Shown here: positions 58,701 through 61,700 of the stretch, one piece after another
Layout of the letters: every line of letters begins with the position of its first letter
Numbering within the stretch: the first letter of the stretch is position 1
Origin: Escherichia coli
GTDB lineage: Bacteria > Pseudomonadota > Gammaproteobacteria > Enterobacterales > Enterobacteriaceae
Reading direction: 5' to 3' (one strand)
Assembly: GCF_003018255.1 (NCBI RefSeq)
Contig: NZ_CP027440.1
Length of the DNA stretch: 64,000 nucleotides
Made by a program: the position numbers

Positions 58701-61700
58701 CGTCTCCCATGCCATAACCAATTTTCTCTTTAACGGACAACACTTCACTCTTCATCTGCTTTTCCTTGATGCTATAGGGGTGCTGAGACCGATAACGCAT
58801 TTTGTAAACCATCCCTGCGAGAGCGAATATTCCGATATCTGGTTATTAATTTATGATTCTTGTTTTATGTGATCGTGGTAGCGTTAATTTCGCTCATATA
58901 TCATTGTAAAATATGAGTTTTATATGAACTATAATGTTTTCGTGATAATACGCTGCGTGTATTAGGCGGAAAAAACTGATCTGGGGGATGTAGAAACTCA
59001 AGGAAGTAGCTATAATGCGCCCCGCCTCCATGTAGCAATCGAGGCGCGGAAGATCGTCGTCTCCGGTGAGGCGGCTGGACTTCAAATCCAGTTGGGGCCG
59101 CCAGCGGTCCCGGGCAGGTTCGACTCCTGTGATCTTCCGCCAAAATGCCTCTTCTGAACTCTCCCGACGTCAACAACACTCCTTCGGAGGCGACATGTCA
59201 GACAAAGACTTAACCCAGCCCCCAGCAGGCGAGTTTATTATGTTTGCCAGCGGTGACGGAAGAGTGCGTGTTGAATGTCGCTTTGAGTCAGACACAATCT
59301 GGTTATCCCAGGCGGCAATGGCTGAACTGTACGATAAAGATGTTCGCACTATTAACGAACATTTAATCAATATATTTTCCGAAGGTGAACTTGTTCAAAA
59401 CTCAACCATCCGGAAATTCCGGATAGTTCGCCAGGAAGGAAAACGTCAGGTTTCCAGAGAGATAGACCATTACAACCTCGAAGCCATTCTCGCTGTCGGC
59501 TATCGCGTTCGCTCGCCTCGAGGCACGCAATTCCGCCAGTGGGCCACCCAGACGCTTCAGGAATACCTGATCAAAGGTTTTGTGATGGACGATGAGCGGC
59601 TGAAGAATCCGCCTGTCGGTTCATCGGTTGTGCCCGACTATTTTGATGAGATGCTTGAACGCATCCGCGATATTCGCGCCAGCGAGCGTCGGGTATATTT
59701 GCGGGTGCGGGAGATCTTTGCTTTAGCTGCCGACTATCAGCCATCACTAAAAGAAACCACGCAATTTTTTCAAACCATCCAGAATAAACTGCATTTTGCC
59801 TGTACCGGGCATACCGCTGCGGAACTCATCCACAAACGAGCAGATGCCAGCCAGCCGCACATGGGCTTGACCAGTTATAAAGGTGAAGAGGTACGTAAGG
59901 GCGACGTGACGGTGGCAAAAAATTATCTCACCCAGGATGAGGTCAGCGAACTTAATCGCGTGGTTAATATGTGGCTGGACTTTGCCGAGGATCAGGCCCG
60001 TCGTCGTCAGCAAGTCTTTTTGCGCGACTGGCAGGATAAGCTGGATCAGTTCCTGCAATTTAACGACCGAGAGGTTCTACAGGGCGCTGGTAAAATCAGC
60101 AAGAAAATGGCCGATGAAAAAGCGCAGGCGGAGTATGTTCAGTTTGCCGAACAACAACGGCGCTTAAAAGAAGCCGAAGGCGAGAAGGATATCGCTGGTT
60201 TGCTACAGTGGAATAAAGAGTCGAAAAAGTAGCCCGGAATCCCCCCAAACGCCATACGCAAAACCATTTGGGGGTACTTATGGGGTTACTCATTTATCAA
60301 ATTCAAAATATAAACATTAAATCAATAACTTAACCATCAAATGCGACTCCTGTGATCGCCAAAATGCCTCTTCAGTGATCCCCATCCTGCTTATTTCTGA
60401 GCAACCTGACCCTGCTGATGTATCTGGTAGTATGACAGAGTGATTCGTTTTTCTTGCCGAGTGTACGAAAACGTCTTCCTTGCCACCGACTATCAACCGT
60501 CACTCAAAAAAACCTCTCTTTTTTTCAAGCTATCAAGAATAAGTTGCATTTTATCTGCACCGGACACCAGCCATCCATATATGGCTTTTACCTGCTACAA
60601 AGATGAAGAAGTGCATAAATGTGATGTTAAAACAATCAAAGAAAAATTACATGCGCAATAATTTCACTATAACATTATAATCCATGGTGAAAATAACACT
60701 GCACAAGGATTGTCATCATCAAACTCATCGGAACTATTTTTTCTGTCGTCATTGGTGTAATACTGATTGTAAGTATCCTTTCAGGAGATTATTTTTGCCG
60801 TGTGGGGCATGGAACTTGTAAAGCAGCCAAAAGCGCTAGGCATTTAATTGAAAGTAAAGAGAAAAACAGAAGTAGTCGCGTCAAAGTCTTTAGCACGCAT
60901 ATTAATTTGAGTCATCCAGCGGCATCCTGGCTAGCAACTCAAACTTGCGCTAACAATATATTCAATCTACTTCAAAACAATAATGCCATTTATTTATTCG
61001 AAAACGATAATAAAATTGAACTGCGAATGGGGTATGATTCTTTTTTTTCTATTGAAACGATTGATAAAATTAACAAAGAAAACATCAAAGAAATAAAACT
61101 AAAAAATGAGACAACATATGTTTCTCTTCCTAATCCAACCATTTTAATAACCACGACATCAACACCTGAACGACAGTTTTCTATTTCTGTTCTGGATGAT
61201 GATAACAAAGAAAATCTACCTACCGATACCGCACCTTGTTTTACAATTGGTATTCCTGATGAATATACTAAAGCCATAGAGTTATTGAACATTAAATAAT
61301 TAAATTTCATATTGAGTTTTTTTAAATACCATATGAATAATTGTTATATGTCATTATTTCCTCCATTCACTAAAACTGATTGATTACTCTACTCCCTCAC
61401 CGTCATCGGTAGTGGTATCCTTAACGTATATTGATGAAAAGACAAAACAGTATGCAGAGGGAAAAATGGGTTCCACCAGAAAGGGGATGCTGAACGTTCT
61501 GATTGCCGCCGTGTTGTGGGGAAGTTCAGGGGTCTGCGCGCAATACATCATGGAGCAAAGCCAGATGTCGTCGCAGTTTTTGACTATGACGCGTTTGATA
61601 TTCGCCGGTTTGATTCTGCTGACGCTGTCATTTGTTCATGGCGATAAAATCTTTTCTATTATTAACAATCACAAAGATGCCATTAGTCTGCTGATTTTTT

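Follow-up and report, generated by a model that had tools for sequence, protein, structure and literature searches.

Islands integrate site-specifically in the 3' end of selC, the gene for tRNA-Sec; the tRNA is rebuilt at the left attachment site (attL) and the old 3' end is displaced to the right one (attR). In the 64,000-nt stretch of Escherichia coli DNA that we analysed (the window), selC is followed by a segment of only about 1.2 kb, which ends at attR and holds one gene, of the RhuM family. The question is how a single gene came to be enclosed there, and what it may do. The best explanation, which we regard as probable, is that 59143-60373 is a collapsed CP4-like selC island of the P4-integrase type with rhuM as its last gene. 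A preliminary description of this DNA had taken the locus for a scar of repeated integration and excision.

Layout of the selC islet

The features of the locus are as follows.
59048-59142, + strand: selC (tRNA-Sec), intact (ARAGORN; Rfam RF01852, 83.8 bits).
59121-59154, + strand: attL core, the left copy of the direct repeat, made up of the final 22 nt of selC and 12 nt beyond.
59143-59184, + strand: remnant of the left arm of the island, with the GAACTCTCCCGACGTCAACAA motif (alignment A2).
59186-59190, + strand: GGAGG ribosome-binding site, 4 nt upstream of the rhuM ATG (sequence reading).
59195-60232, + strand: rhuM, intact, 345 aa, RhuM family (Pfam, PADLOC, RefSeq, AlphaFold2, dN/dS).
59404-59428, no strand assigned: palindrome of 25 nt within the rhuM coding sequence, AACCATCCGGAA-T-TTCCGGATAGTT, kept in orthologues.
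60233-60343, + strand: right arm of the island, with the TTTGGGGGTACTTATGGGGTTACTCATTTAT ... AAATCAATAA motifs (alignments A3 and A5; loci L015 and L016).
60344-60373, + strand: attR core, a displaced copy of the selC 3' end with a 4-nt deletion.
60440-60661 (start approximate), + strand: remnant of an older rhuM allele, frameshifted and truncated (BLASTP).
60802-61299, + strand: orphan ORF of 165 aa (ORF165) with low GC (about 30%).

The islet thus sits right behind a tRNA gene, the 3' end of which serves as the attL core, and a direct repeat of that end closes it off on the other side, 1201 nt after the tRNA end. Its presence at selC varies among strains. No integrase ORF was found between yicJ and yicL (58813-61411), in agreement with the preliminary description that none is retained. 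A cognate integrase elsewhere, which had been suggested as a check, was not found among the window ORFs screened: the sole integrase there (17562-18914) is only 28% identical to those of selC islands and was rejected as a partner. GC is 0.47-0.54 across rhuM, similar to the flanking core genes, so the gene does not show the host-unlike base composition expected of an island, and the only AT-rich stretch lies in the older flank (60500-61400).

The rhuM gene and its product

The preliminary description had a RhuM-like gene whose start would overlap the tRNA. Its family assignment is borne out by Pfam PF13310 (Virulence_RhuM), which matches residues 70-323 over model positions 1-250 of 252 (E = 5.7e-118), and by the PADLOC model PDLC04852 for the candidate defence family PDC-S05, which matches residues 1-343 over positions 1-339 of 346 (E = 2.8e-173). 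In strain DETEC-S792, which is 99.7% identical, RefSeq places WP_001280586.1, a virulence RhuM family protein, at the same position. The overlap does not hold: the start is the ATG at 59195, which is the RefSeq choice and is kept in six orthologues, and since it stands 52 nt past the tRNA end the gene is free of selC; only the longest possible ORF, from a GTG at 59066, reaches into the tRNA. The GGAGG site is kept in the Citrobacter, Enterobacter, and Salmonella orthologues.

The gene is kept intact under strong purifying selection, with a dN/dS of 0.043-0.051 against five orthologues (about 0.045). An AlphaFold2 model of the product (pLDDT 84.5) has an N-terminal DNA-binding-like domain followed by the alpha-helical RhuM core. 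R161, E164, N197, K242, and N243 are invariant residues of the protein. NCBIfam and PHROGs gave no match to the protein, and a sequence search against the PDB returned nothing (best E 0.63). DdrC of Deinococcus radiodurans resembles it in structure only (TM-scores 0.25-0.33, sequence identity 8-12%), and this resemblance is not evidence of a common function. Within the coding sequence, the palindrome folds as RNA with -11 kcal/mol (z = -2.27).

Between selC and the ATG, a promoter and terminator scan, whose overall counts were not above those of shuffles, picked up neither a sigma-70-like site nor a terminator-like hairpin, and the hairpin after the rhuM stop codon was not significant (z = -1.68). 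The Citrobacter leader has a promoter-like TCTGGCATACTAC motif that the window lacks. Judging by the sequence of this interval, transcription that starts at the selC promoter probably reads through into rhuM here.

The repeat as an attachment site

The 30-bp imperfect repeat of the tRNA 3' end had been proposed with the proviso that careful alignment support its relation to selC, and it does. Segments 59121-59154 (34 nt) and 60344-60373 (30 nt) align with 30 of 34 nt matched. Two perfectly matching blocks, of 14 nt and 17 nt, keep their order and orientation, and one 4-nt deletion separates them. Only the short length of the repeat speaks for a chance similarity, which we consider ruled out: the 17-mer occurs just twice in the 64-kb window, where shuffles predict 0.02 matches, and none of 100 shuffled windows contained it two or more times. 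Chance is also contradicted by equivalent repeats in relatives (Citrobacter, Salmonella, and E. coli CUPF09) and by a boundary that coincides with the core in three genomes. Besides the window, these are strains 400625 and 25POL. The selC island of 400625 measures 38 kb and includes an integrase gene, Ag43, resistance genes, and a CbtA/YeeU module; that of 25POL is a different one. All three genomes are 100% identical from CGACTCCTGTGATCGCC rightwards, whereas to the left of the core they are alike only to about 75-80%, with arm motifs in common. Sequence identity among three different selC islands of E. coli begins exactly at the core, which makes the repeat a true attR, and other E. coli strains have integrase-bearing islands that use this very core at 60344. 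Beyond the core, to the right of 60373, and in the selC-yicL interval of K-12, a search for further arm or att copies gave chance-level words only, and no right end of the older element was found. A comparable arrangement is known from the selC-A island of EAEC 042, which is bounded by a 21-bp direct repeat of the selC 3' end (PMC7058095).

Successive rhuM generations at the locus

The degraded second rhuM-like fragment was confirmed: the ORF at 60440-60661 is 41% identical over 80 aa to RhuM residues 166-245 (E = 5e-14), and its DNA is about 80% identical to 59730-59811 and 77-81% identical to the four alleles compared (window, Citrobacter, K. aerogenes, and Enterobacter). Judged by this similarity it derives from a RhuM gene, and the locus holds two rhuM generations, one intact to the left of attR and one decayed to its right. 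An identity to the intact gene of only about 80% means that the fragment is not a recent local duplicate.

Comparison with K-12, also proposed in the preliminary description, revealed a third rhuM remnant. In K-12-type genomes, selC is followed by an 80-nt leader and a mid-rhuM fragment, between selC and setC. This pseudogene is RhuM-derived and directly follows selC with a similar leader, as in the window, but it belongs to another allele (75% nt identity) and is a fragment of ~160 nt with an internal stop; it is then followed by setC, where the window instead has the arm, attR, the remnant, and ORF165. Further pieces are found in strain CUPF09, with the order island, attR, leader, and rhuM 5' fragment, and in 25POL, which retains a rhuM 3' end that matches the alleles of Citrobacter and Klebsiella at 91% identity. 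Of the scar of repeated integration and excision, the several rhuM generations and the real att site stand, whereas there is no sign of excision here.

ORF165 takes the position held by setC in K-12 and is annotated as hypothetical protein WP_000509808.1 in strains with the same flank. It had no match in NCBIfam, PHROGs, or PADLOC, and no significant one in Pfam. It is part of the flank common to all attR-bearing genomes and lies outside the rhuM islet; 1103 genomes have this right flank.

Distribution across genomes

The whole 2.7-kb minimal arrangement was found in 843 of 5426 complete E. coli genomes; it is common, fixed in about 15% of them, and already annotated. About 3700 other complete genomes carry the K-12-type remnant, and others have large islands. 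The 5' part of rhuM is held by 846 E. coli genomes, in 845 of which the gene is full-length (at least 95% identity in 842, at least 99% in 840), and it is single-copy in all but one, where a further match, including one on a plasmid, is seen. This allele does not occur inside a full island in any complete E. coli genome. A literature search on rhuM combined with selC yielded only Salmonella, Plesiomonas, and methods papers, in which this E. coli arrangement is not described.

In other genera, rhuM is a neighbour of yicI-yicJ-selC in Klebsiella aerogenes, Citrobacter, and Enterobacter. Raoultella has rhuM on one locus with selC, at a distance of about 2.7 kb, and the Serratia gene adjoins a T6SS cluster and is preceded by a 3' remnant of DUF4942. 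Between E. coli and Citrobacter, dS is 0.64 for rhuM versus 1.34 for the flanking yicJ, and nucleotide identity is 88-89% for rhuM versus 78-81% for yicI/yicJ. With a dS half that of the flanking core gene, rhuM has moved since speciation.

Origin of the islet

Both arms are homologous to those of integrase-bearing islands at selC (A2, A3, and A5; L015 and L016). The remnant at 59143-59184, about 42 nt of left arm, is homologous to the sequence that follows selC in the LEE and in integrase-bearing selC islands, and then stops; the about 110 nt of right arm have homologous, yet diverged, counterparts in CP4-like selC islands that bear an integrase. In Salmonella enterica (L016) and in a metagenome locus (L015), the order is DUF4942, 87 nt, rhuM (94% aa identity), the same arm, and the selC core, with no att core between DUF4942 and rhuM in either locus. 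SPI-3-like autotransporter genes lie further on in the Salmonella region, and in L016 the GAACTCTCCCGACGTCAACAA left-arm motif also comes after the attR core. Unlike the window, L016 has rhuM still joined to the CP4 module, and on this alignment the DUF4942-rhuM-arm-attR order is likely to be the parent layout. The parent island had to be inferred from Salmonella, as no complete E. coli genome holds the allele in a full island. The classical S. Typhimurium SPI-3 layout presumably runs selC-sugR-rhuM onwards. Citrobacter has selC, 119 nt, rhuM, arm, and attR (7151-7179), which is also a minimal form, but with different internal end points. Given the real attR, the Salmonella parent layout, and the Citrobacter minimal form, the islet is best read as a collapsed island.

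In the intact island, the series of genes would have ended with rhuM, next to the right arm and attR. An internal deletion from ~42 nt past selC to ~10 nt before the rhuM start codon would have removed the integrase, the CP4 module, and rhuM's own promoter, leaving attL, a left-arm stub, rhuM, the right arm, and attR. The island would have integrated in front of an older rhuM-bearing element, the decayed rhuM of which would now lie just right of attR, and the islet would today be an immobile chromosomal fixture. The size of about 1.2 kb given in the preliminary description was thus right, but the segment is more likely the remnant of an island after internal deletion than a small unit inserted as such. 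The islet resembles CP4-like selC islands (the LEE of EPEC/EHEC, EAEC 042 selC-A, and the resistance/Ag43 islands) in its selC 3'-end target, direct repeat, and homologous arms; it differs in having one gene left, with no integrase or CP4 module, in a left arm cut to about 42 nt, and in the 4-nt deletion of attR.

Apart from the lack of this allele in any full island of a complete E. coli genome, further points count against a collapse. Different islands have an attR with the same 4-nt deletion; the deletion end 10 nt before the ATG, which spares the ribosome-binding site, is convenient; and the GC of rhuM (about 50%) is not atypical of the genome. An end point so near the ATG may reflect selection or a different history, and the order could have been reversed, with a minimal islet to which a CP4 island was added later, the internal att site then being lost.

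Alternatively, the 1.2-kb unit could be a non-autonomous mini-island that carries one defence gene and was spread by a CP4-like integrase acting in trans, in the manner of the CIMEs of streptococci, which have att sites on both sides and no recombination genes and which decayed from larger integrative elements. We consider this unlikely. The islet does have both att cores with pieces of both arms, and it has no recombination or transfer genes; Citrobacter has the same unit, the halved dS of rhuM agrees with movement since speciation, and integrase-bearing islands of other strains use the very same attR. However, the internal left end points differ (a 52-nt leader in E. coli versus 119 nt in Citrobacter), so the two units are not copies of one defined element. 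The left arm of only about 42 nt and the attR core short by 4 nt argue, as far as sequence can tell, against mobilisation in trans; the single copy in 845 of 846 genomes, at least 99% identical in 840, looks like vertical inheritance within a lineage; and rhuM in Salmonella is joined to DUF4942 with no att site between. The likeness to streptococcal CIMEs therefore extends to att sites on both sides, the lack of recombination genes, and an origin by decay, whereas here the att sites are damaged and mobilisation in trans is hypothetical.

It is quite improbable that rhuM is instead an old, vertically inherited gene of the Enterobacteriaceae, lost in many E. coli, with the repeat and the fragment arising by local duplication. 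Its position near selC in Klebsiella aerogenes, Citrobacter, Enterobacter, and Raoultella, its genome-typical GC, and its core-gene-like dN/dS would fit, but its dS is about half that of neighbouring yicJ, the stretch from rhuM to the repeat has homologues in the right arms of islands that bear an integrase, the point where three islands diverge coincides exactly with the core, the remnant is too distant from the intact gene to be a recent local duplicate, and in Serratia the gene lies next to a T6SS cluster, behind a DUF4942 remnant.

If the islet is a collapsed island, selC islands may have decayed to rhuM alone separately in E. coli, Citrobacter, and perhaps Klebsiella and Enterobacter. We would only tentatively extend this to rhuM being a defence gene that repeatedly outlives its island and here rides on the tRNA-Sec transcript, a possibility that we hold to be rather unlikely; if true, expression of an immune gene would be tied to a tRNA promoter through a tRNA-mRNA co-transcript.

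The finding is real yet unremarkable, since the arrangement is common and already annotated; its value is mainly tidiness, with no new kind of system. It accounts for the "virulence RhuM family protein" annotated next to selC in about one complete E. coli genome in six, for the K-12 rhuM pseudogene, and for several different selC islands ending at one damaged att site, and it provides a small, clear case of island decay sparing one gene.

Possible function of RhuM

The RhuM family is named for a Salmonella SPI-3 gene, and a Salmonella rhuM mutant is reportedly attenuated for epithelial invasion and killing of C. elegans. Many of the genomes listed with the islet are human clinical isolates, including O25b:H4-ST131 and UPEC. 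These points would favour RhuM as a virulence factor rather than a defence protein, and the locus as a minimal pathogenicity islet, a reading to which we give little credence. The hits listed also include islet-bearing E. coli from wastewater, dolphin, possum, and musk deer; the family is very large (29,152 cluster representatives at 50% identity); and the predicted fold pairs a DNA-binding-like domain with an alpha-helical one. RhuM-like genes are moreover found in R-M and PrrC defence loci and also fused to DOC domains (PMC3710099), and a family member blocks phages: a PDC-S05 (Virulence_RhuM) gene from a deep-sea metagenome lowered plating on E. coli B about 1000-fold for T7 and T5 and about 10-fold for T4 (bioRxiv 10.1101/2024.09.26.614923).

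Most likely, RhuM acts as a single-gene anti-phage defence protein, in which the N-terminal domain would recognise nucleic acid and the conserved alpha-helical RhuM domain would be the effector. The phage-blocking evidence belongs to one distant family member; the window protein, which matches the PDC-S05 HMM over its full length, is a candidate defence protein. Being single, chromosomal, conserved, and present in well-studied clinical strains, it is an easy test case for PDC-S05, for which K-12-type strains supply natural rhuM null alleles.

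Organization of the selC locus

The window is E. coli chromosomal DNA, in which the gene order is yicI, yicJ, selC, the rhuM islet region, yicL, nlpA, yicS and nepI, and every feature named in the preliminary description was found in the sequence. Two features lead up to the islet:

57373-58812, minus strand, yicJ
59048-59142, selC, intact

Only one gene, rhuM, lies between the two repeat copies. Its longest open reading frame begins with a GTG at 59066, within the tRNA, and only this frame produces the overlap with the tRNA that had been claimed. The actual start is the ATG at 59195: GGAGG lies 4 nt upstream of it, RefSeq uses it, and orthologues from five other genera share it. 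The gene thus starts 52 nt past the tRNA end, without overlap. The 345-residue product matches Pfam Virulence_RhuM (E = 5.7e-118), confirming the RhuM homology proposed for the intact gene. Within the coding sequence lies a 25-nt palindrome (59404-59428) that the Citrobacter, Klebsiella and Enterobacter orthologues retain with 92-96% conservation. As RNA it folds into a hairpin of -11 kcal/mol (z = -2.27). The palindrome may serve as an operator or arise merely from the conserved TIRKFRIV codons.

The direct repeat

The 34 nt at 59121-59154, comprising the final 22 nt of selC and the next 12 nt, recur at 60344-60373 as exact 14- and 17-nt blocks with one 4-nt deletion. The 17-mer has no other copy in the 64 kb, and shuffled sequences are expected to yield 0.02 matches, so the repeat is related to selC. 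The same repeat forms the right end of a 38-kb island in strain 400625 (selC, tyrosine integrase, resistance genes, Ag43, CbtA/YeeU CP4-type module, DUF4942), and strain 25POL carries another, different island at the same position. In a three-way alignment, the window, 400625 and 25POL are identical from CGACTCCTGTGATCGCC rightwards, whereas to its left they are about 75-80% alike, with shared motifs including TTTGGGGGTnCTTATGGGGGTTACTCATTTAT and AAATCAATAA; this pattern marks a site-specific crossover point flanked by arms that are particular to each element. As judged from these alignments, the repeat at 60344-60373 is a true attR. On the left side, homology to the post-selC sequence of LEE and of integrase-bearing islands covers 42 nt past selC (59143-59184) and ends just ahead of the rhuM ribosome-binding site. 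For EAEC 042, an island has likewise been described whose borders carry a 21-bp repeat derived from the 3' end of selC (PMC7058095).

The 4-nt deletion in the attR core, seen when the window is compared with the E. coli loci L003 and L007, is common to genomes with three different islands. It would reflect either an island swap, with crossover left of the deletion via a selC-defective intermediate, or exchange by homologous recombination.

Origin of the islet

The locus is best explained by the collapse of an island down to its last gene, rhuM, in front of an older rhuM remnant. RhuM proteins with 94% sequence identity are encoded on Salmonella enterica contig L016 and on metagenome scaffold L015; in both, a CP4 module closes with DUF4942, rhuM starts 87 nt later, and the same arm and a selC core follow, with no att core between DUF4942 and rhuM. 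A CP4-type island can thus have rhuM as its final gene, next to attR. The preliminary description came close to this reading; a small unit that integrates and excises repeatedly is less likely, and a mini-island mobilized in trans is improbable.

The older remnant, previously described as a degraded second rhuM-like fragment, is a 73-codon ORF (60440-60661) that aligns to RhuM residues 166-245 (E = 5e-14); the alignment requires frameshifts, both gene ends are absent, and identity to all alleles tested is 77-81%. Comparable traces occur in strain CUPF09, where an island and attR precede a K-12-like leader of 125 nt and the opening 65 nt of rhuM, and in 25POL, which keeps the last 43 nt of an allele 91% identical to those of Citrobacter and Klebsiella and 79% to that of the window. 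A search to the right of the window attR found no further arm or att copy, and K-12 homology resumes at 61437, just ahead of yicL. In place of the K-12 setC, a 30%-GC stretch holds an orphan 165-residue ORF (60802-61299), annotated as hypothetical protein WP_000509808.1 in strains with the same flank and without a match in any of the family libraries searched.

Another minimal form exists in Citrobacter, with selC, 119 nt, rhuM, the same arm and an attR core (7151-7179). Its leader keeps the motif TCTGGCATACTAC, which precedes rhuM in Salmonella, Klebsiella, Enterobacter and Serratia as well but has been lost from the window leader; thus, the internal end points of the two minimal forms differ. 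K. aerogenes, Enterobacter and Raoultella also have rhuM near selC, behind a SymE-toxin gene, and these loci have no recognizable arms. In Serratia it adjoins a T6SS cluster, with a DUF4942 3' remnant kept upstream.

In four genera (loci L009, L011, L013 and L017, from Klebsiella aerogenes, Citrobacter, Enterobacter and Raoultella), the selC-linked rhuM has a SymE-toxin gene as its companion, in many cases together with a DUF6680 gene. The toxin gene stands ahead of rhuM in some loci and behind it in others, which points to a small and variable cluster of toxin and defence genes next to selC. Separately, at 8152-8230 of the Salmonella contig, the left-arm motif ACTCTCCCGACCTCAACAAAA stands immediately 3' of the attR core and is followed by SPI-3-like genes; thus, what was the attL of an older element now flanks a newer element at its attR, which cleanly illustrates serial accretion at selC.

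Frequency and selection

Of 5426 complete E. coli genomes, 843 carry the 2.7-kb selC-yicL segment at a coverage of at least 80%. Among genomes holding the 5' part of rhuM, 840 are at least 99% identical over it, and those listed include O25b:H4-ST131 isolates. About 3700 genomes have instead the K-12 arrangement: behind selC stands an 80-nt leader joined to 160 nt from the middle of a different rhuM allele (75% identity), and setC comes next. The right flank of the window (attR, remnant and 165-residue ORF) occurs in 1103 genomes, therefore about 260 have this flank with content other than the rhuM islet beside selC. The islet sequence is already annotated in hundreds of RefSeq genomes, and all its parts are of known kinds.

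Against five orthologues, rhuM has a dN/dS of 0.043-0.051, similar to that of the core gene yicJ (0.041). Its dS between E. coli and Citrobacter is lower (0.64 vs 1.34 for yicJ) and its nucleotide identity higher (88-89% vs 78-81% for yicI and yicJ), therefore rhuM is a functional gene that was exchanged between genera after their split. Such exchange fits carriage on an island.

Possible role and expression of RhuM

The match of RhuM to PDC-S05, a candidate defence family of PADLOC, spans the whole protein (E = 2.8e-173). One PDC-S05 gene whose product has a Virulence_RhuM domain protected E. coli B against phages, with plating reduced about 1000-fold for T7 and T5 and about 10-fold for T4 (bioRxiv 10.1101/2024.09.26.614923). 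RhuM-like genes occur in R-M/PrrC loci and as DOC-domain fusions, according to comparative work that suggested a toxin-like function for them within a layered defence (PMC3710099). The family is very large and comprises 29,152 cluster representatives. The best Foldseek match in the PDB is DdrC, with low TM-scores, and the helical core, with invariant polar residues R161, E164, N197, K242 and N243, has no convincing solved relative. The N-terminal domain may recognize nucleic acid, with the core acting as the effector.

The 52-nt leader contains no sigma-70-like site and no stable hairpin, and the usual upstream motif is deleted, which makes read-through from the selC promoter the simplest way in which rhuM might be expressed, as far as the sequence indicates. 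The one modestly new idea here is that of a defence gene surviving the loss of its island and perhaps now relying on a tRNA promoter.

Other elements in the window

A second integrative element of about 16 kb (17562-~33400) follows yicC. Its genes include a 450-residue P4-type integrase (17562-18914) that shares 28% identity with selC-island integrases, an ORF with an Icd-like domain at its end and a 712-residue helicase-like ORF; strain DETEC-S792 has only yicC-dinD-yicG at this site. Three C4 antisense RNA genes stand in tandem, about 461 nt apart:

22908-22995, C4 antisense RNA gene
23370-23458, C4 antisense RNA gene
23831-23918, C4 antisense RNA gene

Between yicH and yicI, a minus-strand cluster (47807-54750) has ORF sizes matching a cluster annotated in strain 400625 that comprises BglG-antiterminator, PTS IIA/IIB/IIC, aldolase and ROK genes; in the Enterobacter locus L013, yicH directly adjoins yicI. 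One further element lies upstream of the waaQ-type LPS core operon:

8098-8136, minus strand, JUMPstart element RF01707 (55.2 bits)
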